NCBI GenBank assembly: GCA_026413865.1
Contig: JAOAKB010000005.1
Span: 803-64,802, forward strand
Length of the DNA stretch: 64,000 bases
Direction: 5' to 3'
DNA from: Nitrososphaeria archaeon
GTDB taxonomy: Archaea > Thermoproteota > Nitrososphaeria > JACIWG01
In this document: in pieces, positions 36,600-52,880 of the stretch
Numbering within the stretch: the stretch's first letter is position 1
Layout: each line of letters opens with the position of its first letter
Made by a program: the position numbers and the translations under genes
Notes under the pieces: model-generated
The model's database searches: none
What the model saw: only the letters and a program-made list of their open reading frames with translations
What the model was told of the DNA's origin: nothing

Positions 36600-36613
36600 T
36601 TAAGTATATAAAA
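36600..36613 (+). promoter_or_regulatory. TATA-box candidate for the 36632 gene
   Basis: TTAAGTATATAAAAGG lies ~22-30 nt upstream of the TTG/ATG at 36632/36635, consistent with a leaderless archaeal transcript. Confidence 0.3.
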
Positions 36614-36631
36614 GGCTTTTCAAATAAGATA

Positions 36632-37672
36632 TTGATGCAAAATTTAGAAAACAAAAAAATTTTATCACATCTATTAATTACAATTATGTTGTCCTTAATA
36701 ATATTAAATTCACCCACCTTCGCACTATATAATATAATATCACCACAGGCTACAATAACTCTTCCTACCACAATCTTTCCAACAGTAACATTCACATTTC
36801 TTCCAACCTATAGTCTATCTGTTACACCATCAAATGTTACCATAGATCAGGGTGAACAACTTCCAGTTACTGTTACAGTAGGCTCCTATTTTGGATACAA
36901 TAAGACAATATCACTCTATTCTTCAAATGTTCCACCTGGTTTCACAATCAACTTTGCCCTAAACAAACTTACTCCACCAGTAAACGGTAACATAAGTACA
37001 ACAGCATTTATTTCAGTCTCAAAAACTGTTGTAGCTGGAAAATATAAAATGTTCATTAATGCAACAGATGGGTCTATAAAGAGGGGTGTAGAAATTAATG
37101 TGAAAGTGGTTCAAATTACAACCACCCCTCCTACAACAACTCCAACCACCTCTCCTACATCTACTTCACCTACAACGACATCCACTACTCCAACCACCAC
37201 TTCTCCGACAACCACATCACCAACTCCTACTACAACACCTACAACTACATCGCCCACAACTTCAACTACTACACCATCTACCCCCTCTCCAACTACTTCA
37301 CCAACAACAGTCACCACCTCCCAGCCAACTACTACAACATCTGCTGTTTCATCTGGTGGAATAGACACCACAACAATCGTAATTATAGCAATAATACTAA
37401 TAGCAGTATTTGCTGCAATAGCATTCTTTCTTTTAAGAAAGAAGCCTCCACCACCTCCTCCTCCGGCAAAGAGATATTGTATGCACTGTGGAAGCGGCAT
37501 GCCTGATGATGCAGTATCCTGTCCAAAGTGTGGAAAACAGCCTGCAGGCGGCCCAGACACTAAAGTATGTCCAAACTGTGGTTCAGTAATAAACATAGTC
37601 GCATCATTCTGTCCAAAATGTGGTGCAGCACAGCCTAAGGTGGGAGAGAAAGGTGGGTCAACCAGCAGCTAA
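36632..37672 (+). CDS. Type-I-like membrane protein: signal peptide, Ig-like ectodomain, Thr/Pro stalk, TM helix, poly-Pro, cytoplasmic double zinc ribbon
   Basis: N-terminal hydrophobic segment, TM helix TTIVIIAIILIAVFAAIAFFLL, then RKKPPPPPPPAKR, then CMHCG..CPKCG and CPNCG..CPKCG. Confidence 0.6.
   Translation: MMQNLENKKILSHLLITIMLSLIILNSPTFALYNIISPQATITLPTTIFPTVTFTFLPTYSLSVTPSNVTIDQGEQLPVTVTVGSYFGYNKTISLYSSNVPPGFTINFALNKLTPPVNGNISTTAFISVSKTVVAGKYKMFINATDGSIKRGVEINVKVVQITTTPPTTTPTTSPTSTSPTTTSTTPTTTSPTTTSPTPTTTPTTTSPTTSTTTPSTPSPTTSPTTVTTSQPTTTTSAVSSGGIDTTTIVIIAIILIAVFAAIAFFLLRKKPPPPPPPAKRYCMHCGSGMPDDAVSCPKCGKQPAGGPDTKVCPNCGSVINIVASFCPKCGAAQPKVGEKGGSTSS
37114..37342 (+). repeat. Thr/Pro-rich low-complexity coding repeat (TTSPTTT-like units)
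   Basis: Directly visible ACN/CCN-rich repeats encoding TTTPPTTTPTTSPTSTSPTTTSTTPTTTSPTTTSPTPTTTPTTTSPTTS... Confidence 0.85.
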
Positions 37673-38162
37673 ACAAGGTGACAAAATAGTAGCCCAAGAC
37701 ATTCATATTGTCATGGTACCCTCCCCAACTGGACTTGTTCCAACACCTACCCCTCTACCATTTAATGGCATAATAGACGGTAACTTGAGTAATGATGTGT
37801 TTATAGAGGGGAAGCCTGCTGCAACCGTCGGAAGCACTGCAACAAACACTCCACCACATACTCCAGTTGGTGGTGTATCATTTCAGGTTCCTCCAAAAAA
37901 TAGGGGTACAATTCTTGTTGGAAGTATGGGTGTTTTTATAAACGGTAAACCTGCTGCAAGAAACGGTGACACTGCAATAACATGCAATGATCCAGTCGAT
38001 CTTCCTGTAGGCAAGGTTGTCGCTGTTGGAAAGGTTTTTATTGGAGACATGGGTGTTCCAATACCTAAACCTACTACACCTGAAGAAGGGAAGGAGAAAG
38101 GGCTTGAAAAGCCTAAGGTTGAGGACTATAGACTTTTAACCCGTCCTAGAATTGAGGCTTAG
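37653..38162 (+). CDS. PAAR-domain protein (spike-tip cone)
   Basis: Three PAAR-type repeats: GQPAAKQGD, GKPAATVGS, GKPAARNGD. GTG at 37653 is preceded by GGAGAGAAAGG. Overlaps the upstream gene by 20 nt (53 nt if the 37620 start is used). Confidence 0.75.
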   Translation: MGQPAAKQGDKIVAQDIHIVMVPSPTGLVPTPTPLPFNGIIDGNLSNDVFIEGKPAATVGSTATNTPPHTPVGGVSFQVPPKNRGTILVGSMGVFINGKPAARNGDTAITCNDPVDLPVGKVVAVGKVFIGDMGVPIPKPTTPEEGKEKGLEKPKVEDYRLLTRPRIEA

Positions 38163-39619
38163 AGGAACTCAAGCTTCTTATAAACAAAATTTCTTCTATC
38201 CTTAACATATCTTATGAATATTCCATAATGTCTGCTTAGGTTCGATGAAAGGACTAGTTTTGGAAACTCAATGTTTCCAGGACATACTTCATCTTCTTCT
38301 GAAGCTTGTATCATTCCTCCTTCTGCTGGCTGATACCATAAAATACCATTTTTGTCTTGGAAAAGATGATGAGTTAAACCCTCTTCGTCTAAAATCACAT
38401 CTATACACTTTAGCTCACGCTCCTTTGGAACTGGTACAAAAATATTTTTCACTTCAACTTTTCTAATAACGTCTAGAATGTGTGCGTTCAACCTATCTTT
38501 TTCTAATGTTAGATAGTGTAGAGCTAAAATTCTTTCTCCACTTTCATCTATGCAATTGTTTGAAAGCTGGAGTGCAAAACATTGGTTTTCGTTCTTGAAT
38601 AGTGTCTGTTTTGTAACCTCTTCTAGGTTTTCGCCAGAAATTTCAATATAATAGCATTCATTGCATCCTTTTATAGTGTAAACTAGGTGTGCATGTGTTT
38701 TTTCATCGAAGACAAGATTATATTCGTCCAATATTCCTTTGAATGTTTCTAGAGGTTTTGTTTGAAAATTGGCATCTTCTCCTATTTTAATCAAGTATAT
38801 TGTTGACAAGTTGTCTGTAAAGCTGTATGCTAAAGATATCAAAACTCCGTCTTCACAAAAATATGGTGGTTCAAATATACAATTTACTTGAAAAGGCAGT
38901 TCAAAACTGTTCAGGGAAAATTTTTCATCTTCGACAACACATTTGAAGAAAACATTTTTTTCATACCAAACTATACAATTTTTTCTCTGGTCATAGTTTT
39001 CAGGTAATGCAGCATATACGTCATAAGGTTTGTCTAATCTTGTTACACGCTTATTATACCATATGTTTTTTGGAAAGTTTGGACTATTTTTCATAAAATA
39101 TAAGAAATGTTCATTGTTTTGTTTACTTATCCAAGCACTATATATTGGATCATAAGCATATCTCAAGTAGTCTCTTGGTGATGAAATGTATATCGGGTTT
39201 GATGATATAATCTTTATCTGCACAATTTCTGAATTTATAAAAAGTATTTCATGTGATGTATATGTAGCCCTTATCTTATAAAGGTCTTCAGCCAATTCGC
39301 CACAAATTTTTGTCAAATCCAAATTCAAGCATTTTTTACTATTTGGAGATAATTTGAAAGTTTTTGGTTTATAGGGTTTCAAAATTATACCTTCACGTGA
39401 AAGCCAGTTTCGTAGTGGAAATGATCTTTTAAAGCCTGTTTTTCCTAAAACTTTAAAGTTAAGGGAAGCTGATAGTGGTGTCAGTTCATCAAGCAATAAA
39501 TTTTTGTTGCCAATATTCTCTAAGCATACCGTAACTGGAATGGATTCTCCTCTAACGAATTTTCTTCTACTAAATTTCAAATGTAGTTTTAGATTTTCTT
39601 TTAGGCTCAAAAATGTCAC
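38159..39619 (-). CDS. Hypothetical protein, last gene of the contractile-tail operon
   Basis: 486-aa ORF, 3 nt after the upstream gene. No recognisable motif. N-terminal ~110 aa look beta-sandwich-like. Confidence 0.5.
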   Translation of the reverse strand: MTFLSLKENLKLHLKFSRRKFVRGESIPVTVCLENIGNKNLLLDELTPLSASLNFKVLGKTGFKRSFPLRNWLSREGIILKPYKPKTFKLSPNSKKCLNLDLTKICGELAEDLYKIRATYTSHEILFINSEIVQIKIISSNPIYISSPRDYLRYAYDPIYSAWISKQNNEHFLYFMKNSPNFPKNIWYNKRVTRLDKPYDVYAALPENYDQRKNCIVWYEKNVFFKCVVEDEKFSLNSFELPFQVNCIFEPPYFCEDGVLISLAYSFTDNLSTIYLIKIGEDANFQTKPLETFKGILDEYNLVFDEKTHAHLVYTIKGCNECYYIEISGENLEEVTKQTLFKNENQCFALQLSNNCIDESGERILALHYLTLEKDRLNAHILDVIRKVEVKNIFVPVPKERELKCIDVILDEEGLTHHLFQDKNGILWYQPAEGGMIQASEEDEVCPGNIEFPKLVLSSNLSRHYGIFIRYVKDRRNFVYKKLEFL

Positions 39620-39622
39620 ATC

Positions 39623-41746
39623 CTACTGTGTCTCAAAAACGAGTGGTGCACTTTCTATGAAATTATTTGGTCCTCGGCTAATTCTGTACTTTACTTCTGT
39701 CCTCCCTCTACCTACAATTTTTATCTTTGCAATCCAAATTTTATTTTCTTTTCTAACCCTTATTCTTCCAACTTTTGTGTTTGTTGAAATCCAACTTCCT
39801 CTCTCATATTTTGTTAAATCCTTTTTGTAGTCTATATTATCATCGTTTACAACTTCCTCAGAAGGATATAGTGCCAATAGCCTAAGTTCTTCTCCTACAA
39901 TTAGAGATTCAGGCGGGTTTTGATGAATTTTTAGCCAAGGTTCTATCACACTCCACCCATCTTGGTCGACTGTTTCTTTATCGGAATCCTCAACCCAGTA
40001 AACAGTCGGCGTCCTATGATATAATATTGTTCTCAGAGTGTTATCTTCTCCTCTTATCATTCTGTTTCTATCATAAAGTCTTAGTGTTAGTAGGCATAGT
40101 CCGCAAAAGTGCCATTCAACATTATTTATATTATATGACATTACACATGTTATCATATCATCGCTATCATGGTCGTCCCAGTATGGTCCTTCTGAACCAC
40201 TTTCCTCGCATCTTGTTGTGAATGGTATGTCAGTGTTTTTAACAAAATATGTTGCCCCATGTCTTAAGAAGAGTGCGTGTCCAAACTCGTGTACAAATGT
40301 TGACTCCATGTTTAATCCAGATACAATGTAGAACATTTTGTTGAAGAAACTTAGTCCTCCAACACTTGAGTCTTGAAATGGAGGCTTGCATATTAGTGTA
40401 CATACACCAATATCTATTCCTCTAAGCGGGTTTCTTAAACGATTATAAGTTTGTCCACCTAATTTTTCTCTGAAGACTCTTTTCGCCATTTTCTCTAAAA
40501 ACGTCCACGAGTCTCTGTTTAGATTTTGGGGGTCTTCATCTGGCGGTGTTAATTTTTGTGATCCTGGTATCGTTGGATGCGCTTGTGGAAAGGAGTAGTT
40601 TCTTAAGTCTTGAGTTTGCTCATTAACGTAATTGGGTTTCGAATATTCTTTCCATTCACTTTTGCGCCATCCTCTATACACTTCTTCTCCTAAATATCTC
40701 ATCCATTCTTCTCTTGTTATTGTGTACCTTTTTTCTGGTGGTGGTTCCTCAACTTCTATAAAAGCGTCTGCGAAGGCTGACTTTACAACCTTCCATTTCA
40801 TGTCCTCATAGTTTATTCCCTCTTGTAGGGCTACCATTTCTATCTTAATCTTCTTCCATACTGTTATTGTAGGGGTTTGAAAGTATAATGGGTATAGGTC
40901 TGGATTGTCTTTGTCCCTTAAAACAGCCTCTTGTCCGTTTCTGTTGATAAGCCTTATTTTAAGTCTATAATTGTTTCCAGCAACTGGTGGGAAATGTAGT
41001 AAGATTCTAGCATATCCTATTCTTATAATATTGTTTGAACCTTCAATCTTTTCCTCAACTTTTCTTATTGGCACTATGACTGCGTTAGGGTTTTCAGTAT
41101 ATACTCTAAATTGTCTTTTACTTTCATCCAATATTATTTTTTGTGGATTGTCCACATTACCTTGAACGCTTCTACATCTGTCTTGGAATTGTATTGGAGC
41201 AAATATGTTTGGACAGTTGTCTCCTCCATCTCCTCCTGAAACCTGGCTTTTAAGGAATGATACAAAGTCTGCTCCACATCTTCCATGCCCTTTTGGACCC
41301 TTTATTGTGCCAATGTTTTCTGGTGGATCAACTAGTTCTATTATTGCTGAAACTTCGTCTGCAACATAGTTTTCTGGATTGTCTGCAGCCATTTTTGAAA
41401 TTTCAATCTTTACTGGTATGTAAATGTCTATTTTTCCCATTATACCCCATATTCTATAAAATTGGCATTTGTCAACCACATATGATCCATTGTCTCCCAC
41501 ATTCTCTGAAATACATATTCTAAATTCGTCTGAAGATTCTAGGAGGTCAACTTCTTCCCTAATTGGAGTGTATACAGTTCTTTCAGTTTCAGTATCAACG
41601 TCTGATGCCTTTTCTATTGTATAGTTTGCATTCTGAGCTGGTGGTTGAACCTTTAAAGAAACAGTATATGAAACCTCACGTTGTAGTGTTCCTTCTAATA
41701 TGTTTGTTTTAACGTCAACTAAACCGTATGCTGTTACATCACTCAT
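39623..41746 (-). CDS. Large protein with metzincin-like zinc-protease signature
   Basis: 707 aa. HEFGHALFLRH (H-E-x-x-H-x5-H, third His at metzincin spacing) followed ~40 aa later by CVMSYN (serralysin/astacin-type Met-turn S-x-M-S-Y). Confidence 0.6.
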   Translation of the reverse strand: MSDVTAYGLVDVKTNILEGTLQREVSYTVSLKVQPPAQNANYTIEKASDVDTETERTVYTPIREEVDLLESSDEFRICISENVGDNGSYVVDKCQFYRIWGIMGKIDIYIPVKIEISKMAADNPENYVADEVSAIIELVDPPENIGTIKGPKGHGRCGADFVSFLKSQVSGGDGGDNCPNIFAPIQFQDRCRSVQGNVDNPQKIILDESKRQFRVYTENPNAVIVPIRKVEEKIEGSNNIIRIGYARILLHFPPVAGNNYRLKIRLINRNGQEAVLRDKDNPDLYPLYFQTPTITVWKKIKIEMVALQEGINYEDMKWKVVKSAFADAFIEVEEPPPEKRYTITREEWMRYLGEEVYRGWRKSEWKEYSKPNYVNEQTQDLRNYSFPQAHPTIPGSQKLTPPDEDPQNLNRDSWTFLEKMAKRVFREKLGGQTYNRLRNPLRGIDIGVCTLICKPPFQDSSVGGLSFFNKMFYIVSGLNMESTFVHEFGHALFLRHGATYFVKNTDIPFTTRCEESGSEGPYWDDHDSDDMITCVMSYNINNVEWHFCGLCLLTLRLYDRNRMIRGEDNTLRTILYHRTPTVYWVEDSDKETVDQDGWSVIEPWLKIHQNPPESLIVGEELRLLALYPSEEVVNDDNIDYKKDLTKYERGSWISTNTKVGRIRVRKENKIWIAKIKIVGRGRTEVKYRISRGPNNFIESAPLVFETQ

Positions 41747-42243
41747 GATTGTTCTTCCTTTAACTTGTATCCTTTGATTTTTAGTTTGAACCTGCCTTTT
41801 GGCACTCCCTTAAATTTTGCACATCCTTGTGTGAATGTTCCCTTTTCTTTGCTTCCATCAGAAAATTCTATCTCAAATTCTACATTATTCAATGGTGTAC
41901 CGTTTTCATCTTTTACATATATTTCTAGTGGGTATATGAATGTCCATGGTTCTGACTGTGCTTCTAGGTCTCCAACTTTTGCCCTAAAATAGTACTCTTC
42001 TAATTCGCCCTCTTCTTCTACTATCTCTTCCTTTTTTAACGTGTCTCTTTTTTCAGTTGCTCTTGGTGTCCATAGTGCCTCACCTTTTCCACCTCTTACT
42101 GTACCATTTACTTGGTCCACTATCTTTTCCTCACTGCCCTTTTTCATCCAGATCTCGAACTGCACTAGTCTTCCGTCTTCGAATCCTCTTGTGTCTACAC
42201 GTAGTTTTATTGGGCCTAGTGGTATCTTGTTTCTTTGGCTCAA
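41743..42243 (-). CDS. Hypothetical protein (beta-rich)
   Basis: 166-aa ORF with 4-nt overlaps at both ends, suggesting translational coupling within the operon. Confidence 0.45.
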   Translation of the reverse strand: MSQRNKIPLGPIKLRVDTRGFEDGRLVQFEIWMKKGSEEKIVDQVNGTVRGGKGEALWTPRATEKRDTLKKEEIVEEEGELEEYYFRAKVGDLEAQSEPWTFIYPLEIYVKDENGTPLNNVEFEIEFSDGSKEKGTFTQGCAKFKGVPKGRFKLKIKGYKLKEEQS

Positions 42244-42908
42244 ACTTTTCTTTGCTCCCTAATCTCTATCCTCTCTATTGGTGGAACTATCCTTGTAATC
42301 TTTAACTCGGTTTCAGCATTGCATGATATTATTGCCTGGTTTTCTTCGACCATTTTCCCATATAATGGCTTGAATGTTGTCCCTATTTCTTCGAAACTTT
42401 TTTCTGATTGGTATAAGATTTTTATCACATTTTCTATTAGATTGTCTAGTTGTTGTCTATCCTTTGATGTTATAATAATATGATATTTTGCCTCTATCTT
42501 GAGCCTATTAACTTCAACCTTCTTTGTTTTCGTATTATATCTTATTATAATGTTTTTGTTTCCTTTAGAAGGCTGTACCCTAAACAATATTGTTTTTCTC
42601 TCATAGTCTACATTATAGTCTTGTAGTTCCTCTAACCTTTTTCCTGCTGGATGTTCGACTGAAACAATGTTTGAAGGTGTCTCTTTTAAAACATAATCTT
42701 TTCTTTCTCCGTCTCCATCAAATTCTTCTGTTACAAGTTCACCTTCCTCTTCCACTATGTTCGATTTATCTATTTTGAACGCTACATTTTTTAATAATAT
42801 TGAAGGTTTTATGTCTATCTTGAATCCTATCCTAATGTTTTCTTCAGCAACCTCTTTAACCTCTTTTCTTAATATTTTGAGAACCTTTTCCTCAAGCTCA
42901 TAGAGCAT
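42240..42908 (-). CDS. Hypothetical protein
   Basis: 222-aa ORF within the operon. No recognisable motif. Confidence 0.45.
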   Translation of the reverse strand: MLYELEEKVLKILRKEVKEVAEENIRIGFKIDIKPSILLKNVAFKIDKSNIVEEEGELVTEEFDGDGERKDYVLKETPSNIVSVEHPAGKRLEELQDYNVDYERKTILFRVQPSKGNKNIIIRYNTKTKKVEVNRLKIEAKYHIIITSKDRQQLDNLIENVIKILYQSEKSFEEIGTTFKPLYGKMVEENQAIISCNAETELKITRIVPPIERIEIREQRKV

Positions 42909-42918
42909 TAGGTTTACC

Positions 42919-43566
42919 TCATATTGGACCTATTTTTGACTTGTAATGTATAACATTCCCTATTTTAAGTATACAGTTTGGTTCGCTCTTTCTAAATGAT
43001 ATATTGAACACTTCCTTTTCAGGATGAGGATTTTTTAACCTATACCTGTACCAGACTCTCTCGTTTGGTGAGAGAAGATATTCTAGGTACGGGTTTTCTG
43101 AACTTTTAGGCCTAAGTCTTGAACATTCGTTTATAAATAGGCCGCTTACTACGCTTGATGTTCCATCAAGGTACTCGAACACTATATCCAGTGCCTTCTT
43201 GTCGCCGTCTTCTGCTCCAGCCCAATATTCCAGTATTTCAAGATATGCTGCTAGCCCGAATCTGCATAGTTCTCCAACCTTTCCCCTCTCTGTCGCCCAC
43301 TGTCTTGTTATTGGTCCAACCACTGTTGCATTGTAGCTTGCTGTTTCTCCTGGTACTGGAACATTTAGTTCGTAACTTGTTCCAACCGGGCTTGCTGGGT
43401 TTAGGATTGTAGCGCTTTCTGTTAGGCTTTCAACATACTTTCTAAGTTCTATAACGCTTTTCTCTATCTCTTCTAAATCTTTTAGGATATCCTCTTGTAT
43501 TCTGTTCCAGTCTTCAGCTTTTATAAGTTCGCCAGGCTTTTTTGTTATGGGCTTAAATTTTGGCAC
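42919..43566 (-). CDS. Hypothetical protein, tail-fibre/receptor-binding candidate
   Basis: Sits in the slot occupied by fibre genes in Mu/P2/PBSX tails. The N-terminal LIKAEDWNRIQEDI plus coiled-coil resembles N-termini of phage fibre proteins. Recognition is weak. Confidence 0.35.
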   Translation of the reverse strand: MPKFKPITKKPGELIKAEDWNRIQEDILKDLEEIEKSVIELRKYVESLTESATILNPASPVGTSYELNVPVPGETASYNATVVGPITRQWATERGKVGELCRFGLAAYLEILEYWAGAEDGDKKALDIVFEYLDGTSSVVSGLFINECSRLRPKSSENPYLEYLLSPNERVWYRYRLKNPHPEKEVFNISFRKSEPNCILKIGNVIHYKSKIGPI

Positions 43567-44457
43567 CTAGTCCACCTCCACAATAATCTTTACTCCAGCG
43601 GCCTTAATTGCATCTAATACTTCTTTCACATATTCCTTTGTATACTTGCTTCTATTTAAAGCCTCTCTTCCTATTTTTACTGCTATTGTTGCAGGCTGTA
43701 ATCTTGTCCACTTGAATCTAACTGTAGCCTTTGGTGTACTTACAGCAAATATGCTTTCATCAAAGTAGCTTGAATCGAACACACCTATCCTTTCTCTTAT
43801 AAGCTCAGAATATTTCCATGTTGAAGCTTTTCTATGCAAGAATATTGTTTTGGTCTCCATCTTATCATTTGCCTCAACATCATTTATGTAGCATTTACCG
43901 TTTTTTATTACTATCTTGTCTCCTTTTTCGAAAACCCCTTTAAGGTTTACGTATGTGTTAAAGTCTAGGTTTGATATTGAAGGGTTTTCTATCCTGTCCG
44001 ATGCATCAATTTCTAATGTTGGTGTAGTCTTTTCTTCTATACTGTAGCTTCCAAGTGTCCACGTGTCCCCTGACATAACACTTACTTCATATGATGAGTC
44101 GGCTGGAGGGTTTTCTATAATTTGGATACCCTCTCCTACAATACTCTTTAGTATTGAGTGTATAGAATGTAGAGTTCCTCCTCCGGTAAAGTCTACTATT
44201 GCCCTAACTATTCTACTCCTATACCTCTCATCCTCTTCTCCTTCTAATCTTTTTAGTCCAAATATTGATCCCATTAGGTCTAGGTCTCCATCTGATGCTG
44301 TTTCTATCCAGTGTGAAAGCATCATATTGTATGCTAGCTCTTTTGTGTAATCGAGTTCTGTTCCAATTGCTTTAACAAGTTTAAAGATTATTGAAGACTT
44401 TATCCAGTATTTGTAAAAGTCTGGTAGGCGGGAGAATATTTTGTCCGCGCTAGACAA
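43567..44457 (-). CDS. Baseplate protein, gpI / Mu gp48 (DUF2313)-like
   Basis: Position directly after the Baseplate-J gene, with RLPDFYKYW near the N-terminus. TTG at 44457 is 1 nt after the J stop, with AGGAGG 11-16 nt upstream. This is preferred over the GTG at 44517. Confidence 0.5.
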   Translation of the reverse strand: MSSADKIFSRLPDFYKYWIKSSIIFKLVKAIGTELDYTKELAYNMMLSHWIETASDGDLDLMGSIFGLKRLEGEEDERYRSRIVRAIVDFTGGGTLHSIHSILKSIVGEGIQIIENPPADSSYEVSVMSGDTWTLGSYSIEEKTTPTLEIDASDRIENPSISNLDFNTYVNLKGVFEKGDKIVIKNGKCYINDVEANDKMETKTIFLHRKASTWKYSELIRERIGVFDSSYFDESIFAVSTPKATVRFKWTRLQPATIAVKIGREALNRSKYTKEYVKEVLDAIKAAGVKIIVEVD

Positions 44458-44458
44458 T

Positions 44459-46021: not shown

Positions 46022-46429
46022 TTAAACCACCTCCAATAGCATTGAATAAAATACTGTTAAGGGTCTTCTCTTTCCAACTGGTATAACAACAATCTCAATA
46101 TCGATCCTGTTTGGGTCTAAAATGTTGGGTGAAACTGTAACGCTTACAATTTCTTTGATTCTAGGCTCTCCAGATAGTGCATTAAGTACATATGTTCTTG
46201 CAAGGTTTCTTGTTTCTTCAGTGTTAGGTTGCCCTATTAGGTCATATAATTTTGAGCCATAGTCAGGGTGTCCTAGTTCCTCTAATTCGCCAAGGTCTGT
46301 CATTAGCCTGTGCACTATTGCCTGGGCAAGATTTTCTTCCTCCTGTGCAAGTTGTAGATCTCCATCTTTTACTTGTAGGTCTGCGCCTGCTTCATCAAAC
46401 TTTAATTTTAGGTCTGATTTTAATGACAT
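46022..46429 (-). CDS. gp25/GPW-like baseplate wedge (sheath-initiator) protein
   Basis: 135 aa. ...AIVHRLMTDLGE...GHPDYGSKLYDLIG...GEPRIKEI pattern of the GPW_gp25 family. Confidence 0.75.
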   Translation of the reverse strand: MSLKSDLKLKFDEAGADLQVKDGDLQLAQEEENLAQAIVHRLMTDLGELEELGHPDYGSKLYDLIGQPNTEETRNLARTYVLNALSGEPRIKEIVSVTVSPNILDPNRIDIEIVVIPVGKRRPLTVFYSMLLEVV

Positions 46430-46438
46430 GCTGTCACC

Positions 46439-47158
46439 CTAGTTTATGTTCACTGTTGCACCCTTTATTGTAGTCCTGCCACTTGCTTCCATGTTCATGT
46501 CAGCTGAAGATGTTAGCTTTAGGTTTGCGTCCGTGTTTATCTTCAAATCCGCTCCAGCATTGACCTCAAGCTCCTTTTCACTTTCGACCTTTATCTTTGA
46601 AGCTGAAAGTGATAGTGTTCCTCCTGAAGAGATTTTTGTGTTGCCTTTGGCTTTTACTACAACGTCTGCCTTCGACTCTATCACAACATCTCCATCTTTG
46701 TGCACTATAACCTTTGTTTCTCCTGTCTTAACCATAATATCTTCGTCCGTAATTTTTATCATTGTTCCCTCTGGAAACTCTAAATATATTCTTCTTTTCT
46801 CTGCATTTTTTGTGTAGGGTGGTACAAATACTATCTCTTCTAAATCGTTTACTGGAGGTCTATCTTCGTCATTGTATAGTCTTCCTATTATGACTGGTAG
46901 GTTTATGTCTCCGTTAACAAACGATACTAGGACTAGGTCTCCCACTCTCGGGGGGCATGCTAGACCTATTACCTGTGTTGCAATTTGAACGTGCTGAAGC
47001 TCTATTTCTCCACCCTTAATCTTGACATTACATTCATAGTTTTCTTTATCGTTCGGTGTACTATGTGGGAATACTGATGTTACGACACCCAATTCTATAG
47101 TATAATTTTTTTTAGCCTCGTTTTCAGCGATTTTTCTTATAAGCTCCACTATGCTCAT
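46439..47158 (-). CDS. Central spike (gpV / gp5 OB-fold + C-terminal beta-helix; VgrG-like)
   Basis: LGVVTSV...RVGDLVLVSFVNGDINLPVIIGRLYN OB-fold motif, then repetitive beta-helix VVIESKADVVVKAKGNTKISSGGTLSLSASKIKVESEKELEVNAGADLKINTDANLKLTS. Confidence 0.8.
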   Translation of the reverse strand: MSIVELIRKIAENEAKKNYTIELGVVTSVFPHSTPNDKENYECNVKIKGGEIELQHVQIATQVIGLACPPRVGDLVLVSFVNGDINLPVIIGRLYNDEDRPPVNDLEEIVFVPPYTKNAEKRRIYLEFPEGTMIKITDEDIMVKTGETKVIVHKDGDVVIESKADVVVKAKGNTKISSGGTLSLSASKIKVESEKELEVNAGADLKINTDANLKLTSSADMNMEASGRTTIKGATVNIN

Positions 47159-47159
47159 A

Positions 47160-48161
47160 CTATTTCACTTCTATTCCTCCTATTAGTGTAGTGAATCCTT
47201 CCCTAAAGTTTAGGTGGTGTTCTACTTCAACAACCTCAAACTCTATAGGCTCTTGAGTTTCTGGAATGTTTTCGACCTTTACTGTGTCACTAACTTTAAT
47301 CTTAGGTTCTCCCAGTGTCCTCAAAAATGTCATGAAATCTATCTTTCTTCTAGAATATATGTTTTCTGCTACTGTTGTAACTGTATCCGTGTCCTTTATT
47401 GTATAGTCCTTTAAAATTAGTTCATGAGCTCCTTTTCCTGTAGATGTTCCGGAATAATCTTTTTTTGAAAGCCAATGAAATGTTTCTCTTCCAGCCCAGC
47501 TTGATGGGCTTTCTCCATAAACTGTTATGCCACCAATCGGATTAAACAATTTAATCAAACTTACTTCTATAATGTTTTCTCCATATTTAAGTGTATAAGG
47601 TTCTTTTCTCTCATATGCTTTAAAGTTTAGTAGTCCTTCTGATGTTGTATAGCATATGTAATTGCATTTTTCCGCTAGCCTTGCTATGTGCTCGTATGCA
47701 TTCATGTTTTCTCCTATAACATAGTATGGGAACATTATCCCATCCATTATTTTCTCATGTTTTAGGGTCTCCTCTCCTTTTTCAGTCAGCCTCTTATTTA
47801 ATGTGTCCAATATATCTGAAACAATGTTTCCCGCTGTCTGGTTAAGGTAAACCCTATTCAATCTCAATATTGTTAGGTGTAGTGCATGGTTTAGTGCGTA
47901 TACTCTTGTCTGTCTAAAACTTTTTTCTATTAGGTCAACTATTCCAGAAAATACTGTCTGTAGGCTGTCCTCGTATCCTATCTTAACAAGAACTTTTTCC
48001 CCCCTCTGCACCTTCTCTGTCTCCTCATCTCTTGTTAGTGTTAATTCTAGTGTGTCAACTTTTGGACATAGTCCACACTTTACTCTTATGCCAAAAACTT
48101 TTGTTGAAGATGGTGTAAACGTTTTCGAACCAAATGTTATCTCATAGTTTGGGTAATACAA
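47160..48161 (-). CDS. Baseplate hub, late-control-gene-D / gp27-like
   Basis: 333 aa. N-terminal pattern (i.i.g..f......sl.V......vDtLeLtL...GekVlVkiGY...lqtVFsGiVd) typical of gpD/Mu gp44. Position directly upstream of the spike. Confidence 0.65.
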   Translation of the reverse strand: MYYPNYEITFGSKTFTPSSTKVFGIRVKCGLCPKVDTLELTLTRDEETEKVQRGEKVLVKIGYEDSLQTVFSGIVDLIEKSFRQTRVYALNHALHLTILRLNRVYLNQTAGNIVSDILDTLNKRLTEKGEETLKHEKIMDGIMFPYYVIGENMNAYEHIARLAEKCNYICYTTSEGLLNFKAYERKEPYTLKYGENIIEVSLIKLFNPIGGITVYGESPSSWAGRETFHWLSKKDYSGTSTGKGAHELILKDYTIKDTDTVTTVAENIYSRRKIDFMTFLRTLGEPKIKVSDTVKVENIPETQEPIEFEVVEVEHHLNFREGFTTLIGGIEVK

Positions 48162-48163
48162 TA

Positions 48164-48661
48164 TTATTTCACCTGCCTTAAAATGTCATAGACTTCTTTA
48201 ATTATAGACTCTGTCTCCTCTTTTGCAGCTTCTTCTTGGCTTGGTGCCGGCTTCTCCTCCTGTTTTGTGCTCTTATGCTCTTTTAGGACTAGAATATAAC
48301 AGTAGCTTGTGGGAGAGTAGCTTACTATTGTTGCCCTAAAACTTTCTATCACAACCTCTGAAATTTCTGTTATAGATGGTATGTCTGAAACAAACTGTAC
48401 TGGTTTGCCGAGCTTAAATTTAGAGTTAAGGTCTTGGAATGTGTTCTTTGAATTTGGTCCAGTTAAGAGTCCTTCAACTATAATCGTTATAGGATATCTT
48501 CCGAAGTCTTGGAATACGCTTCCATCATGTCCTGGTATCTTTATTTCATAAACTTGTCTTCTGTTCGATAGGGTAACATTTATTATGCTTCTTGTCTCTA
48601 ATATTGTTCCCTCCTGGTCTACTCTTTTAACGAGTTCGAGGTCATCTAATTTTATATTCAA
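48164..48661 (-). CDS. Hypothetical baseplate/tube-adaptor protein (Mu gp43 / XkdP slot)
   Basis: 165 aa, between the tape-measure candidate and the hub. Assignment is by position only. Confidence 0.35.
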   Translation of the reverse strand: MNIKLDDLELVKRVDQEGTILETRSIINVTLSNRRQVYEIKIPGHDGSVFQDFGRYPITIIVEGLLTGPNSKNTFQDLNSKFKLGKPVQFVSDIPSITEISEVVIESFRATIVSYSPTSYCYILVLKEHKSTKQEEKPAPSQEEAAKEETESIIKEVYDILRQVK

Positions 48662-48673
48662 AATATTTCACCT

Positions 48674-50506
48674 TCAAAATATTGGGCCATAATATCTTCT
48701 AAACTGTTCTCTCAAAATCTGTGTAATCTTTCTTTCAAGCTCCCATAGGTCTAATTCTGCACCCTCTGGCACTGTTATATTGAAAATGTTCTGTATCTCG
48801 TGTTCCATTAGACTTTGGCTTGGGTGCGTGGGCTGTATTGTGTAAGGTTGTCTTATGGTTGGGGATAATGTTTCACGTCTTGCTTCTTCTTCAGCTATTC
48901 TGAATATTCTTGATGTTTCTAGAAACTGTGATACTGTTGTCATCATTGGAGAAGGCTCTGCTGGTCTCACAACTTTTACATCATATAATAGCCTGTCATA
49001 TAATTGTATTAGGTTTTGGAGAATGTTTTTTGATATTGTTGATAGTGGATAGTATGCCTCTAAACCAAAATATTTTATGGCTTCTGTCTCTTGAGCTAAT
49101 GCTGGAAATGTTTCCAGAATGTTCAAGACTTTTGTGTAAACAGCTTTTCTTGTAAAGTCCTCGAACTTTAATATATCATGTGCTGGTGGATACACTGTAC
49201 TTGTTTGCGTGTAGACTTTTCCTATTATACTGTGAGGGCTTAAGCCAGTAGAAGATAATATTATTGTGTATGGTCTCACTATTGCTTTATGAGTGTAGAA
49301 TATACTTAAGGTGTCTAAGCTAGTATATGGCAATGTCTGTGAATATACTGTAGTTGAAAGTCTATGAGTATAGAATGGATATTCTTTGGCTAAAAGGTGT
49401 ATGTAGTGTGTTAGTGGCGTGGATGTAAAAGCTGATTTTATGGTTTCAATACCTCTATCCTTTTCTATGTTGACTAAAGCTGTTGGTTCGAGTAAAGCTT
49501 GCTTTATAGTGTCTGAAAAAGTTTTTGAAAGTATTTCTTGAAGTTTGGGCACCTGTGTAGCTAATATGAAATAGGATAGAATGTATGGTATACTCAATAT
49601 GTTCTTGTACTCATGCAACGGATGTATTATTGTTTCTCTTATTGGTGATGGAATATTTTTTTCTAGTTCACCAAATTCTGTGAACGTTTTCTTGGCCAGT
49701 GATTGGATAAACCTATAGTCTACGCTTTCTAACTTTTCTCCAAATTCTATTAGTGGGCTGGAGATATAATATTTTGTGAACACTTCTTCTGGCATTATAA
49801 ATTGTTTTGGAATAATATATCTTGTCTCAGGCAATTGGCTGCCTAATTGTGTTAGGATGTTAACTAGACTGCTTATGTACTTAAATGGTTCCCCCAACTC
49901 CTGTCTTAATTCAAGTATCTTCTCTTCTCTAGTCTCATCATATACTTTAGCAGTCTCTATTTTAGATGTTATCGTTTCCTCTATGGGTTTTGTTTCACTA
50001 ATTCTCCTTGTTTCTGGAACAATTTTTTCCTCTAACTTTAACTCTTTCTTAATAGCCTTTTCTGGTGCAATATATCCTGTTCCTATAGTATATTGGCCTA
50101 CACTTTTTTCAGCCTGCATGATATACGATGTACTCTCTCCCACGATCTTGTATGCTTCACTCAAGCTTTCTGGCATTATAACATGTCTTATAAAATGCTC
50201 TGGTACTTTAGCCTGTCTACCTGCCACAATATTTCTTAACAGGTTTATTGTATAAGATATTCTTGGCTGAGCATATATTCTCTGTAATGGTTCAAAAAAT
50301 TCTTCTCTAACACCTTCTATGGGAGCTGAAATACTTGTTTGTGGTACAATTTTTCTTGGAACATAATATCTTGAAATATAACTATTAATATTAATAAAAA
50401 CCTTCATTAAATCTTTAAAAAATTTAGTGTATGATAAGATAATTTTTGATAGAGGCTCAAATAGTATATCCATTATCCTATTAAGGACCATATTAAATTG
50501 GCTCAA
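48674..50506 (-). CDS. Tape-measure protein candidate
   Basis: 610 aa, the second-largest gene in the operon after the 707-aa metzincin-signature protein (39623..41746), located after the chaperone genes as in tailed-phage modules. No sequence motif recognised. Confidence 0.45.
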   Translation of the reverse strand: MSQFNMVLNRIMDILFEPLSKIILSYTKFFKDLMKVFININSYISRYYVPRKIVPQTSISAPIEGVREEFFEPLQRIYAQPRISYTINLLRNIVAGRQAKVPEHFIRHVIMPESLSEAYKIVGESTSYIMQAEKSVGQYTIGTGYIAPEKAIKKELKLEEKIVPETRRISETKPIEETITSKIETAKVYDETREEKILELRQELGEPFKYISSLVNILTQLGSQLPETRYIIPKQFIMPEEVFTKYYISSPLIEFGEKLESVDYRFIQSLAKKTFTEFGELEKNIPSPIRETIIHPLHEYKNILSIPYILSYFILATQVPKLQEILSKTFSDTIKQALLEPTALVNIEKDRGIETIKSAFTSTPLTHYIHLLAKEYPFYTHRLSTTVYSQTLPYTSLDTLSIFYTHKAIVRPYTIILSSTGLSPHSIIGKVYTQTSTVYPPAHDILKFEDFTRKAVYTKVLNILETFPALAQETEAIKYFGLEAYYPLSTISKNILQNLIQLYDRLLYDVKVVRPAEPSPMMTTVSQFLETSRIFRIAEEEARRETLSPTIRQPYTIQPTHPSQSLMEHEIQNIFNITVPEGAELDLWELERKITQILREQFRRYYGPIF

Positions 50507-50509
50507 ACA

Positions 50510-50692
50510 CTATTCACCTTCCTCCTCAACCTTTATTCTCGTTATACCTTGTGCCGCAAGCCTCGACTGAGCCAATTGCTCAGCACGATATGCTAGGGCT
50601 GAAATCAAAAAAAGGATTTGGTCCCGAGTTAGGTCTCGGGGGCTATCCGCAAGCTTATAGCCACAGTCTAGGCAGAGTGTCGCCAACTCCAT
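50510..50692 (-). CDS. Small ORF, candidate frameshift extension of the tail assembly chaperone (gpT-like)
   Basis: 60-aa ORF. Its reading frame stays open upstream to 50755 and spans the A9 tract at the end of the preceding gene. Confidence 0.4.
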   Translation of the reverse strand: MELATLCLDCGYKLADSPRDLTRDQILFLISALAYRAEQLAQSRLAAQGITRIKVEEEGE

Positions 50693-50717
50693 TCCATCAG
50701 GGCTTCTGACAAAGTTT

Positions 50718-51089
50718 TCAATGTCTAACTTTTTTTTTAGCCTCCTCCTCGCTTCTCACGACACCGCTTAATTCGAAAACCTTCATCCCAATATATTCTG
50801 GTACACCAAACTTCATTGTCTCCAGGTCTTGTAGTGTGAGTTTTGGTTCCACTAGCCCTTCTAAGGCTGCTTTTCTTAATATTTCAAAATTTTTTGAAAT
50901 GTCTATTTTACTAAAGTCTGGTGTCCCATCCTCCTTTACTGGAACACTTCCTATTGAAGAAAATATTTTTGAAAGTTCTCCATCTGTTAGAGGCCTTATT
51001 GTGACTTCAGCATCATATTCTCTAATATACAATGTTTCCCTTCTGTTTGCTCCTTCTAAGATAATGTCTTTAGTAAGTTTTCTTGTCAT
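50718..51089 (-). CDS. Tail assembly chaperone-like protein (gpG / XkdN slot)
   Basis: 123 aa, acidic, between tube and tape measure. IRPLTDGELSKI resembles TAC families. Confidence 0.5.
   Translation of the reverse strand: MTRKLTKDIILEGANRRETLYIREYDAEVTIRPLTDGELSKIFSSIGSVPVKEDGTPDFSKIDISKNFEILRKAALEGLVEPKLTLQDLETMKFGVPEYIGMKVFELSGVVRSEEEAKKKVRH
50730..50738 (-). other. A9 homopolymer: candidate recoding (+1/-2 frameshift or transcriptional slippage) site
   Basis: The minus strand reads GCT AAA AAA AAA GTT AGA CAT TGA. The +1 frame reads CTA AAA AAA AAG TTA GAC ATT GAA... and continues into the 50510..50692 ORF. Confidence 0.4.
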
Positions 51090-51090
51090 C

Positions 51091-51492
51091 TTATTGCTCC
51101 CTTACTCTTGTTGCTGTAAAAGTGTATAGGCTTATTCCTACACCGTTTGCGTCTAGAGTAAATGTTTTGTCTTCAAGGTAGCAGTCGTCGAATGAAATAG
51201 TCTTTATAGCTGTTCCTCTCATCTTCAACTCTACTACAAGCTGGAACGATTTGACCTCTGGAAGTGGTGAAAGTAGTATGCTGTCAAACTTTTGATATGT
51301 TGAACGTACTCTTATTACACCATGAACATATAATGGGCCATAGTCTACTCCTATTCTCTCATCTCCACCAATATTGTATACGTTCTGCCTATTCCTAATA
51401 ATCTTCCATTCTATAGACTGTAGTCCTGGAATAACTTCTCCGTCAACCTTAACACTACTTACATTTGCGGAAACAACAGTTGGTTCTGGCAT
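51091..51492 (-). CDS. Tail tube protein
   Basis: 133 aa, 8 nt downstream of the sheath gene. Beta-rich. Size and position match XkdM/Mu gpM-type tubes. Confidence 0.6.
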   Translation of the reverse strand: MPEPTVVSANVSSVKVDGEVIPGLQSIEWKIIRNRQNVYNIGGDERIGVDYGPLYVHGVIRVRSTYQKFDSILLSPLPEVKSFQLVVELKMRGTAIKTISFDDCYLEDKTFTLDANGVGISLYTFTATRVREQ

Positions 51493-51500
51493 CTACTCAT

Positions 51501-52850
51501 CTACACCTCCACGGTTATGGTTGCGTAAACGTAGTCTATTGCTCTCACAGGCCTCACTGCGATGTCCACTCTCACGATACCCTGTGCGAAGTCCATTTCT
51601 GAAGAATATACGTCGACCATAAAAGGTGGCTTTTTACCGTCAACGCTTGGAACAATCGCTCCCTCTCTCTCCATTGAAAGGAAGAATTCTGTTATCTTTT
51701 CTCTTAAAGCAAGTCTTCCACCTGGACTGTTCAATGTACCAATAAAGTTTTCAGCAACATTTTTTACACCACGTACAGCACGGTCAGCTATTCTTGTCAC
51801 ACTAATCTGTTCCTTGCTTGTTGAAATACCCTTTTCAACAATAATACCTCTTCCTCTTCTCATTTCTACAGCAAGTATACCATTTTTTACAAGCTCCGTT
51901 AACTCGCTTGGAGAATACCTTCTTTCAAGAGTATCTATACCTCTTAGAGGTTTAAATGTTGGTGATTCATAATATGGTAAATTACTTATTAGACCTGCTA
52001 CTGCACCAGCAACACCATATGGTGCCACAAGAACAAACCTGTCGCTTGCAAGGGCTTCTGTCCTCTTAACAATATCCTTAACACTTTCACCAGGAGCGAC
52101 TGCTCCAATACCAATCCTGTTCATTGCATCCTTACTCATATTATGACAATGTGCGTCAACAAGTGCGTGAACTGCTGGATCACTTATATCTGCTACCAAA
52201 ACAATGTCAATATCTGGTTCAAGCTCCAGAGCCTGCAATGCCTTTTCAACAGAACTCTTTGAAATTGTTTCAGGCGTCCCTCCAGTCAACTTAACTTCAA
52301 CTGGAGCTGGAATCGCCACAGTCTTCTTCTTACTCAAATCTTCTACAGAAACAAGTTTAGAATTTGCACTTACAAAGCTTGGTGCATACCTTTCGCTGGC
52401 AGAGTCCATTGTAAGTTCATCAAATGTTTCTGAAATCTTTCCATCACTTACCTCCATCCTGAAGACTCCTTCCTTAGAACCTTTCATCACTATAACCTCA
52501 ATATTGTTTCCAGCTGGTCCAGGAGATTTTGCCTTAACCTTCATAACAGCATTTCCGTTAACATCCTGGAATACTGCTTCTGCAGCTTTTCCAGGTTCTC
52601 CCTCAACTCTTACAGCAAAAACTTCTGAAACACCATTTAAGAAAGCTAGCCTTGCATCCCTTGTTAAAGTATATTCTGTGTTTGAGCCAAACTTATCCAT
52701 GTACTCTCTATAGCTTGTTACAGGCACTGCCTCAAAAGAAATTCCCTTTTCTGCGGTTCCTATAAGCCCAACCACACCTGCAGGGTGTAGTTGTTGCGGA
52801 ACTATTTCTTTTACTACGCGTATTTCTACGCCCGGAAGAATACGGGGCAA
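51501..52850 (-). CDS. Contractile tail sheath protein
   Basis: 449 aa. N-terminal PGVEIRVV and the C-terminal region (NGILAVE...GRGIIVEKGISTS...RIADRAVRGVKNVAENFIG...N...LR.KITEFL) are typical of the phage sheath family. TTG start. Confidence 0.8.
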   Translation of the reverse strand: MPRILPGVEIRVVKEIVPQQLHPAGVVGLIGTAEKGISFEAVPVTSYREYMDKFGSNTEYTLTRDARLAFLNGVSEVFAVRVEGEPGKAAEAVFQDVNGNAVMKVKAKSPGPAGNNIEVIVMKGSKEGVFRMEVSDGKISETFDELTMDSASERYAPSFVSANSKLVSVEDLSKKKTVAIPAPVEVKLTGGTPETISKSSVEKALQALELEPDIDIVLVADISDPAVHALVDAHCHNMSKDAMNRIGIGAVAPGESVKDIVKRTEALASDRFVLVAPYGVAGAVAGLISNLPYYESPTFKPLRGIDTLERRYSPSELTELVKNGILAVEMRRGRGIIVEKGISTSKEQISVTRIADRAVRGVKNVAENFIGTLNSPGGRLALREKITEFFLSMEREGAIVPSVDGKKPPFMVDVYSSEMDFAQGIVRVDIAVRPVRAIDYVYATITVEV

Positions 52851-52880
52851 CCTAATTCATCCGATACTTAAACCCATATG

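Follow-up and report, generated by a model that had tools for sequence, protein, structure and literature searches.

Does a contractile phage-type tail that is encoded without a head in an archaeal chromosome represent the remains of a virus, a particle that leaves the cell, or an injector retained by the cell that makes it? This question is raised by a locus at positions 36632-52850 of a stretch of DNA from a Nitrososphaeria archaeon (contig JAOAKB010000005.1; the whole stretch that was analysed, 64 kb, is called the window below). The contractile-tail gene set of this locus is complete, with genes for the sheath and tube, a probable chaperone and tape measure, the hub, the spike, gp25, Baseplate-J, a gpI-like wedge and a convergent PAAR protein. 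On balance, and with modest confidence, the locus is read here as a domesticated, complete and functional contractile machine of the phage and R-type-bacteriocin lineage, which is carried head-less in archaeal chromosomes, would be docked at the membrane and would act in a contact-dependent manner. Archaeal contractile injection systems (CISs) as such are already known. How archaea fight or otherwise interact with their neighbours is poorly known, and the sole functionally studied archaeal injector in the searched literature is the haloarchaeal one, of a bacterial-like lineage. The family described here offers a candidate membrane receptor or anchor, a conserved recoding site and candidate anti-bacterial cargo as leads.

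Gene Order and Tail Components

In the ORF list of the window, the minus strand carries sixteen closely packed open reading frames (ORFs), read from 52850 down to 38159. This tail operon is faced by a pair of plus-strand genes at 36632-38162 that converges on it. The operon order, i.e., sheath, tube, chaperone, tape measure, gp43-position protein, hub, spike, gp25, J and gp48, is that of phage Mu genes 39-48 (annotation of NC_000929). A first-pass annotation of the window, made by a model from the sequence, had described sixteen packed minus-strand genes and a convergent PAAR gene, and both the ORF layout and the Mu-colinear order bear this out. The sole large overlap within the operon, 59 nt between 44459-46021 and 43567-44517, probably arises from the longest-ORF choice of start.

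The contractile tail sheath (449 aa, 51501-52850, on the minus strand like all operon genes below) matches PF04984 (1.5e-16) and phrog_279 (7.7e-55) and is encoded by a single phage-type gene, in contrast to the two-subunit TssB/TssC. More than 1,500 homologues of it were found, and all those with a source name are archaeal. The tail tube protein (133 aa, 51091-51492) is assigned from the matches of its orthologues and from its place directly after the sheath gene; Pfam and PHROG gave no direct match for the window protein, and 6 of 17 orthologues match PF18906 Phage_tube_2 (best E 4.8e-8), while 3 weakly match TssD/Hcp. Most tube orthologues are 63-71% identical to the window tube, and the ratio of nonsynonymous to synonymous substitution rates (dN/dS) is 0.04-0.05 for tube and sheath alike. 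Alignments of the tube profile by hhalign to Mu gpM and to the post-sheath gene of Ralstonia phage Hyacinthe were negative.

The baseplate genes follow in the Mu order. A 165-aa protein (48164-48661), kept in 24 loci, is tentatively assigned as a tube initiator or inner baseplate protein; it matches DUF6046 (8.4e-6, just under the cut-off) and DNA_circ_N (0.05), the domain that forms the N-terminus of Mu gp43, and hhalign of its profile to Mu gp43 was not significant. The baseplate hub of the Mu gp44/P2 gpD type (333 aa, 47160-48161; PF05954, 2.9e-4; phrog_4930, 1.9e-4) aligns with Mu gp44 over 289 columns (hhalign probability 95.9%, E 5.4e-9). Next come the central spike of the gpV/gp45 type, with an OB fold and a beta-helix (239 aa, 46439-47158; Phage_base_V, 5.7e-7; phrog_9992, 2.3e-10; dN/dS 0.02-0.03), a gp25-like sheath initiator (135 aa, 46022-46429; PF10934, 9.3e-8; PF04965, 2e-7; phrog_975, 2.1e-17) and the Baseplate-J (gp6/TssF-like) wedge (520 aa, 44459-46021; PF04865, 5.9e-32; phrog_6, 2.1e-59), to which, among solved structures, wedge proteins of myophages and diffocin TRI-2 are closest. 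A gpI/Mu gp48-like wedge (316 aa, 43567-44517) matches phrog_1160 (1.2e-18) and PF10076 (7.2e-6, below the cut-off). The sheath, tube, gp25, Baseplate-J and spike families, whose recovery by profile searches had been proposed as a check on the first-pass annotation, were thus all recovered, the tube through its orthologues, and the matches to the recognised tail families far exceed what chance would give.

Downstream of the wedges, a conserved core protein of 215 aa (42919-43566) consists of an N-terminal coiled coil and a C-terminal globular domain and occupies the slot in which Mu and P2 encode the tail fibre, with no match to a fibre family. It is present in 26 loci across phyla at 41-95% identity, with a dN/dS of 0.04. 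It has no Pfam, PHROG, NCBIfam or PDB relative; Pfam applied to all 23 members of the family returned coiled-coil noise only, and an exhaustive phmmer search of 1.8 billion proteins yielded only 27 representative clusters, with no fusion among them and a maximum length of 273 aa. The single-sequence AlphaFold2 (AF2) model has a predicted local distance difference test score (pLDDT) of 41, too low to use, with a confident N-terminal helix. The family profiles of the tube, the 215-aa protein and the 222-aa protein described below gave nothing meaningful against PDB sequences, and NCBIfam gave nothing useful for ten unassigned proteins of the locus.

Elsewhere in the window, Pfam was run on 48 of the 51 remaining ORFs of at least 60 aa. 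No capsid, portal, terminase, protease, integrase or ClpV-like ATPase was found in the scanned ORFs, in agreement with the first-pass annotation, which had recognised no head or integration gene. The Afp15/ClpV-type ATPase that it had also failed to see was likewise not recovered: an Afp15/Cis15-type AAA+ ATPase is absent from the scanned window ORFs, and none is conserved across 34 related loci. TssJ, TssL, TssM and ClpV families were not found in the window scans (Pfam, PHROG), and neither was any lysis family, archaeal lysis genes being poorly known.

Distribution and Maintenance of the Locus

Relatives were sought with a Baseplate-J-based scan of one genome per species in 185,579 species, most of them bacteria. 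The scan returned 33 genome loci, all of them archaeal, in hot-spring "Nitrososphaeria" metagenome-assembled genomes (MAGs; 88-93% identical), Methanomethylicia, several Bathyarchaeia, Hadarchaeota, Thermococci, Methanosuratincola, Methanomicrobiales, Methanocella, Methanoperedens, Nitrososphaerales and Altiarchaeales; the Methanosuratincola loci include that of the complete Methanosuratincola verstraetei LCB70 chromosome. Gene order is identical among the related loci wherever the contig allows, and an all-versus-all clustering of the ORFs of 34 loci revealed no conserved family beyond those of the window locus. In a rough neighbour-joining tree of Baseplate-J, the clades broadly follow archaeal class, with Bathyarchaeia in several clades.

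The surroundings of these loci are cellular. In all eight long contigs examined (Nitrososphaeria, Methanomethylicia, Bathyarchaeota, Hadarchaeota), the 10 kb upstream of the sheath carries cellular genes, and no head, integrase or ATPase gene occurs among the Pfam-annotated called genes of those eight regions; likewise, no capsid, portal, terminase or integrase was found among the annotated genes in the flanks of the related loci. Among 50,697 phage genomes, the best-matching sheath reaches only 22% identity, and IMG/VR contains one 7-kb fragment with a related baseplate gene.

The first-pass annotation had placed the locus as an island directly between purP and a PfkB kinase with a tRNA-Leu, and had proposed that this junction be compared in relatives. 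The flanks were confirmed by Pfam (purP by DUF1246/DUF1297), and the tRNA is real and carries an insertion; however, the position is not peculiar to this genome. Relatives with a 71-86% identical terminator have purP and the same phosphoribosyltransferase and ECF-transporter genes on one side of the locus, and pfkB on the other side where the contig reaches. Since both flanks are conserved in close relatives that carry the locus, a recent mobile island was rejected as an explanation.

Selection was estimated against two relatives with ~94% identical sheaths, for genes present in both. The dN/dS is 0.02-0.31 for every comparable gene of the locus, with a dS of about 0.3-1.4, similar to that of the adjacent pfkB; the dN/dS of pfkB is 0.16-0.18, and most locus genes lie lower. 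These values argue against a decaying prophage and show none of the uniform decay that would have undermined the first-pass description, so that, by these ratios, the comparable genes are under purifying selection and appear maintained rather than decaying.

A Membrane Partner with a Double Zinc Ribbon

The first gene of the convergent pair (36632-37672, plus strand; likely start ATG 36635) encodes a predicted single-pass membrane protein, with matches to DZR (1.4e-9) and Zn_Ribbon_1 (3e-12). The predicted protein begins with a signal peptide, which is followed in order by an ectodomain, a stalk rich in Thr and Pro, a single transmembrane (TM) helix, a poly-Pro linker and a cytoplasmic double zinc ribbon. 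Homologues were found in 18 related loci, all with the same topology and always at the locus, and all of them carry the C-terminal motif R[YF]CM.CG...CP.CG...DTK.CPNCG.VI..VA.FC..CGA.QP. In most homologues, a Big_1/Invasin_D3 immunoglobulin (Ig)-like domain lies between the TM helix and the zinc ribbon. The ectodomains vary (InlB B-repeat, fn3, PQQ beta-propeller, PKD, PEGA or Big_7), whereas the cytoplasmic Big_1/Invasin_D3 and DZR parts are conserved. The gene lies upstream of the PAAR gene on the same strand wherever the latter is at the locus end; in a Methanoperedenaceae locus (L036), it follows the terminator and the PAAR gene has moved beside the spike, and in an Altiarchaeales locus (L039), it is upstream of the PAAR gene and the pair is upstream of gp25.

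Because a TM helix separates the variable from the conserved part, this protein cannot be a component of a free particle, and the linkage of a conserved membrane partner to the locus points to a cell-anchored or membrane-triggered mode. From its neighbourhood and predicted topology, we infer that it may act as an anchor or a trigger. Membrane proteins anchor or fire the haloarchaeal (PMC11566945) and Streptomyces (PMC12237407) systems. The single-pass zinc-ribbon partner would be analogous to the six-helix haloarchaeal membrane protein (PMC11566945) and to Streptomyces CisA (PMC12237407), although it is unrelated to them.

Proposed Chaperone Recoding and the Candidate Tape Measure

In the position of Mu gp41/P2 gpE lies the gene of the probable tail assembly chaperone, whose zero-frame product of 123 aa (50718-51089) is 56-97% identical in related loci. 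The 3' end of this gene reads GCT AAA AAA AAA GTT AGA CAT TGA, i.e., the stop comes a few codons after a run of nine A residues (A9, T9 on the plus strand). This run, at 50730-50738, is the proposed slippery recoding site and is the only A/T homopolymer of at least nine in the 64-kb window, which is ~64% A+T. An A7-A9 run is found at the same junction in 19 of the 20 listed related loci, from several phyla, the exception being the Methanocella locus L033.

Beyond the run, the +1 frame is open from the A9 through a 60-aa ORF (50510-50692 as a stand-alone call) to the stop at 50510, giving a predicted fusion of ~192 aa. The frameshift extension (50510-50729) encodes LDIENFVRSPDG, and this peptide (with FVRSPEG) is 58-95% identical in relatives, in whichever frame follows the A-run; its dN/dS is 0.08-0.13. 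The frame of the conserved downstream peptide is +1 in some lineages and -1 in others. The A-run is thus kept but the direction of the shift is not, which points to slippage on the homopolymer, and this slippage may be transcriptional rather than ribosomal. An alternative view, in which the 60-aa ORF is an ordinary independent gene, would accord with its frame differing among loci, and was dropped because the A-run is present at every junction but one. The chaperone frameshift, which the first-pass annotation had suggested, is therefore strongly supported by the conserved A-run. If true, A9-run recoding would join the few documented examples of programmed archaeal slippage.

The next gene, in the position of Mu gp42, encodes a 610-aa protein (48674-50506), which, like the chaperone, matches no family (Pfam, PHROG, NCBIfam). 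Its relatives range in length from 440 to 842 aa and are conserved only in the C-terminal ~40 residues. Length variation combined with a conserved C-terminus is the usual pattern of tape measures, and the 610-aa protein is accordingly a tape-measure candidate.

The Predicted Tail Terminator

The first-pass annotation had seen no tail terminator or cap and had listed five orphan ORFs after the baseplate genes. Only three of these (166, 707 and 486 aa) are accessory genes, whereas the 215-aa and 222-aa proteins belong to the core and are kept in 26 loci each. The 222-aa protein (42240-42908) is read as the missing terminator or cap from its predicted fold: an AF2 model built on a 17-sequence alignment (pLDDT 85.7) gave, in a Foldseek search of the PDB, the phage 812 neck chain 8qkh_G as the top match (E 1e-7), with further matches to neck entries of Pa193 and E217 that name collar and gateway proteins in their titles, to the necks of Pam3 and XM1, to the pyocin R2 collar 6u5f_A, to the Anabaena CIS cap 7b5i_AA and to lambda gpU. 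The insertion of a small beta domain into the fold keeps the TM-scores of these matches to only 0.3-0.5. This inserted domain carries the motif DY.VDY..G.I.F, which occurs twice in the Baseplate-J protein.

PAAR Protein, Accessory Genes and Candidate Cargo

The second gene of the convergent pair encodes the PAAR spike-tip protein (37620-38162, plus strand; PF05488, 2.1e-16), which is 59-76% identical across phyla. Its ORF overlaps the 3' end of the membrane-partner gene (37620-37672). Alignment with relatives suggests GTG 37653 as the likely start, which still lies 20 nt inside the upstream gene and is consistent with coupled translation of the pair. The window protein has a C-terminal tail of ~38 aa in common with those of L011, L012 and L031, three loci that also have all three accessory genes. 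In relatives, PAAR is fused to other domains, i.e., to a Peptidase_M91 effector domain (2.8e-24) in a Bathyarchaeota MAG (L025:6630-7619, minus strand) and to OmpA and PG_binding_1 in a Bathyarchaeia MAG (L016:18765-20636, minus strand).

The three accessory genes lie between the terminator and the PAAR gene and occur in a subset of the loci only. The 166-aa protein (41743-42243), with a C-terminal prealbumin/Ig-like domain (SpaA-fold, 2.9e-5), occurs in no more than about 10 related loci once redundant ones are set aside, and its N-terminal segment weakly matches the extension of the 623-aa PAAR protein in L016. The 707-aa protein (39623-41746) is a candidate effector, as judged from its motif and position: it resembles metzincin zinc proteases in its HExxHxxxxxH motif and has no signal peptide. 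The motif HE[FM]GHAL.L.HG and a downstream C.MSY are invariant in five homologues, and the canonical Gly of HExxHxxGxxH is replaced in its zinc site. It matches no family (Pfam, PHROG, NCBIfam) and no PDB sequence. A homologue in a Bathyarchaeia MAG (L019:14413-16866, plus strand) carries an inserted LysM domain (1.3e-7). The 486-aa protein (38159-39619) has no family match, and its gene co-occurs with the 707-aa gene in L011, L012, L019, L031, L046 and L047.

The presence of peptidoglycan-binding modules on archaeal cargo suggests bacterial targets for at least some members of the family. Signal-less archaeal peptidoglycan hydrolases were reported to co-occur with sheath genes, as a statistical hint (PMC12352652), and the peptidoglycan-directed cargo of the relatives fits this hint.

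Comparison with Known Contractile Systems

Judged by gene content and order, the nearest affinities of the locus are with phage and R-type-bacteriocin tails and not with Afp/PVC extracellular CISs (eCISs) or with a type VI secretion system (T6SS). R-type bacteriocins such as pyocin R2 and diffocin are likewise head-less, being contractile tail sets without head, replication or integration genes, which is what was found here. Together with Mu and P2 tails, they likewise lack an AAA+ ATPase and have the same gene order and a recoded chaperone, as is proposed here; the fold of gpU and the pyocin collar recurs in the terminator, and diffocin TRI-2 and myophage wedges are the nearest solved kin of Baseplate-J. 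However, the system described here differs from these bacteriocins and phage tails in its archaeal host and in an identity of at most 22% to any phage sheath, in its PAAR tip, with toxin fusions in relatives, in a dedicated membrane/zinc-ribbon partner, in a terminator that is distal in the operon and contains an inserted domain, and in A9-run recoding whose shift direction differs by lineage. In addition, no recognisable fibre, fibre chaperone or lysis cassette was found.

Afp/PVC eCISs and the phage-like structures for protein translocation (PLTSs), including those of anaerobic methanotrophic (ANME) archaea and Methanomethylovorans, are likewise head-less toxin injectors with a PAAR protein, a VgrG-like spike and distal effector genes. 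In contrast to them, the locus lacks an Afp15/Cis15 ATPase, a LysM-bearing Afp7 and an Afp13-type fibre, and its probable tape measure follows the chaperone and precedes the baseplate genes, whereas theirs is near the end. Instead of the eCIS order with tape measure, ATPase and cap distal, the order is Mu/P2-like. The components that identify T6SS i-iii (TssB/TssC, ClpV, TssJLM) were not found at the locus, and neither were the adjacent capsid, portal, terminase and integrase of a Caudoviricetes provirus in the scanned 64 kb. The first-pass claim that the gene set is unlike both Afp/PVC eCISs and the T6SS is therefore upheld by the missing ATPase, the Mu/P2-like order and the single sheath gene.

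The haloarchaeal CIS of Halogeometricum borinquense (PMC11566945) is likewise archaeal and head-less and has a conserved, cluster-associated membrane protein that was proposed as its anchor. It was characterised as a T6SS-like weapon and is used for contact-dependent antagonism (PMC11566945), whereas the same use is only proposed for the present system, which is known from its genes. It belongs to eCIS clade IIa, with genes cis1-16 and closest relatives in Bacillota (PMC11566945); in contrast, the gene set described here is phage-type, without an ATPase and with a single-pass double-zinc-ribbon partner. The cytoplasmic Streptomyces system also needs an accessory membrane protein, CisA, for function and firing (PMC12237407). 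It differs from the present system in its lineage, its membrane protein and its bacterial host and is proposed to act on its producer.

Published catalogues appear to have missed this lineage. Two surveys placed archaeal eCISs/PLTSs in only one archaeal phylum (PMC8213781; PMC12210884), and eCISs/PLTSs were described in ANME archaea (PMC9012536). At least one published screen removes loci with a fibre and a tape measure (Cis13 and Cis14) in which the Cis15 ATPase and Cis6 are missing, in order to exclude phages and R-type bacteriocins (PMC12210884); such a filter would probably drop the ATPase-less, tape-measure-bearing family described here. Sheath homologues in Bathyarchaeota, Crenarchaeota and Thaumarchaeota MAGs were noted only as possible prophage remnants that needed verification (PMC9230969). 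The searched literature, in a search that was incomplete for archaeal toxin-delivery systems, contains no description of a locus of this type, and none of the membrane partner or the recoding site. It also holds no functional study of this layout, only the haloarchaeal clade-IIa CIS being characterised there (PMC11566945), which agrees with the first-pass statement that no archaeal particle of this kind has been functionally characterised.

Proposed Mechanism and Alternatives

In the reading favoured here, the baseplate would be built, as homology suggests, from the hub, spike, PAAR protein, gp25, Baseplate-J and the gpI-like wedge, together with the proteins of 165 and 215 aa. The chaperone, made in two forms via slippage on the A9 run, would handle the tape measure, which would set the length of the tube and sheath, and the 222-aa terminator would cap both. 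Assembly of the particle would take place in the cytoplasm, and the single-pass partner would dock or trigger it at the membrane; the variable adhesin-like ectodomain of this partner would face outward, and its conserved double zinc ribbon would face the baseplate. Contraction would then push the tube, spike, PAAR protein and toxins from the producer into a neighbouring cell; the candidate toxin of this genome would be the 707-aa protein, possibly aided by the 166-aa and 486-aa proteins. In the absence of a ClpV-like ATPase, each particle would be single-use. The outcome would be a weapon that resembles the T6SS and depends on contact, as opposed to a particle set free by lysis, and this lineage probably injects toxins into neighbouring cells. 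A bolder version, in which the family is an ancient, largely vertical, pan-archaeal, receptor-coupled injector with an S-layer-spanning ectodomain, an Ig-like and zinc-ribbon trigger, partly anti-bacterial cargo and A9 recoding, is at present speculative and rather unlikely to hold in all its parts.

Several points weigh against the favoured reading. The machine is known from its genes; its docking at the cell membrane, as opposed to release, is deduced from neighbourhood and topology prediction; the contact between the zinc ribbon and a tail protein is purely putative; and the effector role of the 707-aa protein follows from its motif and position. The gene order, the tape measure and chaperone, the lack of an ATPase and the kinship with myophages and diffocin are traits of released tailocins, and the 215-aa protein in the tail-fibre position could be the fibre of a released particle. 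Moreover, the negatives for head genes cover the window and the locus flanks, so that a distant head module may exist elsewhere in the genome, and the scan patterns were derived from archaeal sequences, so that bacterial members are possible.

The first-pass annotation had likened the locus to an R-type tailocin, and the phage/tailocin gene set sustains the likeness. According to this alternative, the particle builds up in the cytoplasm, acts outside the cell after leaving it by lysis or another exit, and binds through a fibre, perhaps the 215-aa protein, to targets that it then punctures, and the membrane/zinc-ribbon protein, unrelated to firing, could be a release, immunity or regulatory factor. 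A tail colinear with the Mu/P2 type, a tape measure with a frameshifted chaperone, a terminator of the phage/pyocin type, the failure to find an ATPase, the diffocin among the nearest solved Baseplate-J relatives and a 215-aa protein where Mu and P2 encode the fibre are all as expected of such a particle. However, neither a lysis cassette nor a recognisable fibre or receptor-binding family was found (Pfam, PHROG), and the 215-aa protein, unlike receptor-binding proteins, ranks with the best-conserved proteins of the locus (dN/dS 0.04; 41-95% identity across phyla). The variable adhesin-like domains instead sit on a protein with a TM helix, which is impossible in a free particle, and PAAR-toxin fusions are typical of delivery in the style of the T6SS or eCISs and not of pore-forming pyocins. 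A released mode is therefore not favoured, and we regard it as possible and somewhat unlikely.

Two further alternatives were weighed against the membrane-docked injector. An intracellular system could fire into the envelope of its own producer, in regulated cell death, stress or development, with the membrane partner marking the firing site. No secretion, lysis or fibre genes were found, the single-pass partner recalls CisA (PMC12237407), and Streptomyces provides a precedent (PMC10066040); however, cargo with LysM, OmpA and PG_binding_1 and a PAAR-fused protease in relatives suits foreign, probably bacterial, cells better, so that self-directed firing seems improbable. Even less credence, and indeed very little, is given to a provirus tail module that is defective or cryptic, or to a viral tail with its head and packaging genes located elsewhere in the genome. 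The recognisable genes all have viral ancestry, IMG/VR holds one fragment with a related baseplate gene and the scan for head genes was limited to the window and the locus flanks. Against this stand the same head-less layout in 33 genome loci of several archaeal phyla and classes, the presence, in eight related contigs, of cellular genes immediately upstream of the sheath, the strong purifying selection that acts on each comparable gene, the conserved chromosomal position and the distance to the nearest phage sheath (22% identical among 50,697 phage genomes).

M. verstraetei LCB70, whose chromosome carries the locus, has reportedly been grown in enrichment culture and imaged by cryotomography. 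A Methanosuratincola species has also been isolated in pure culture (PMC12244365), and the presence of the locus in this cultivable genus makes the question open to experiment.

Surroundings of the Locus in the Window

Pfam matches elsewhere in the window are of archaeal housekeeping type: SMC/ScpB, eS8, TFB, FtsJ, Trm1, fibrillarin/Nop5, PyrD, Elp3, GatD/GatE, NurA/HerA, NucS, an ECF transporter, Ogt and a PIN-domain protein. No Pfam family was found for a few small ORFs or for the two larger ones at 17748-18983 and 20008-21108, and PHROGs are also blank for the latter two. They belong to a plus-strand group at 17748-21108, between a creatininase-family gene and gatD, in which a 411-aa family-less protein is followed by a 333-aa KaiC/Rad51-like ATPase and a 366-aa family-less protein.

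The AT-rich divergent intergenic region between the sheath gene and pfkB (52851-53022) contains a TATA-like element (gcttatataata) upstream of the sheath start, which is a putative promoter. The pfkB gene (53023-53907, plus strand) lies directly upstream of the sheath gene in divergent orientation, as it does in the other loci of the window's clade, L001-L005, L009, L011 and L031 (51-75% identical). In a Bathyarchaeia locus (L013:2183-3103), a PfkB gene is also upstream of the sheath but is co-oriented and 28% identical, which may reflect synteny or chance.

Beyond pfkB, a probable tRNA-Leu(UAA) lies at 54044-54154 (plus strand), with the acceptor GCAGGGG/CCCCTGC, the anticodon loop CTTAAGA and a long variable arm. 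It was missed by ARAGORN even in intron mode, and Rfam covers only 54079-54150 (32.2 bits); an insertion of ~22 nt in its D-arm region is possibly a non-canonical archaeal intron. Antisense plus-strand ORFs lie opposite the tail genes (36500-53000), e.g., at 44796-45293, 49776-50255 and 52204-52713. Their translations are of low complexity and rich in Ser, Thr, Ile and Phe, and they look like by-products of a strong strand composition skew rather than genes. The PIN-domain ORF is at 61847-62134 (plus strand), with two further ORFs at 62218-63071, and two relatives (L001, L002) have a HepT-like/nucleotidyltransferase toxin-antitoxin pair at the place syntenic to window positions 61847-63071.

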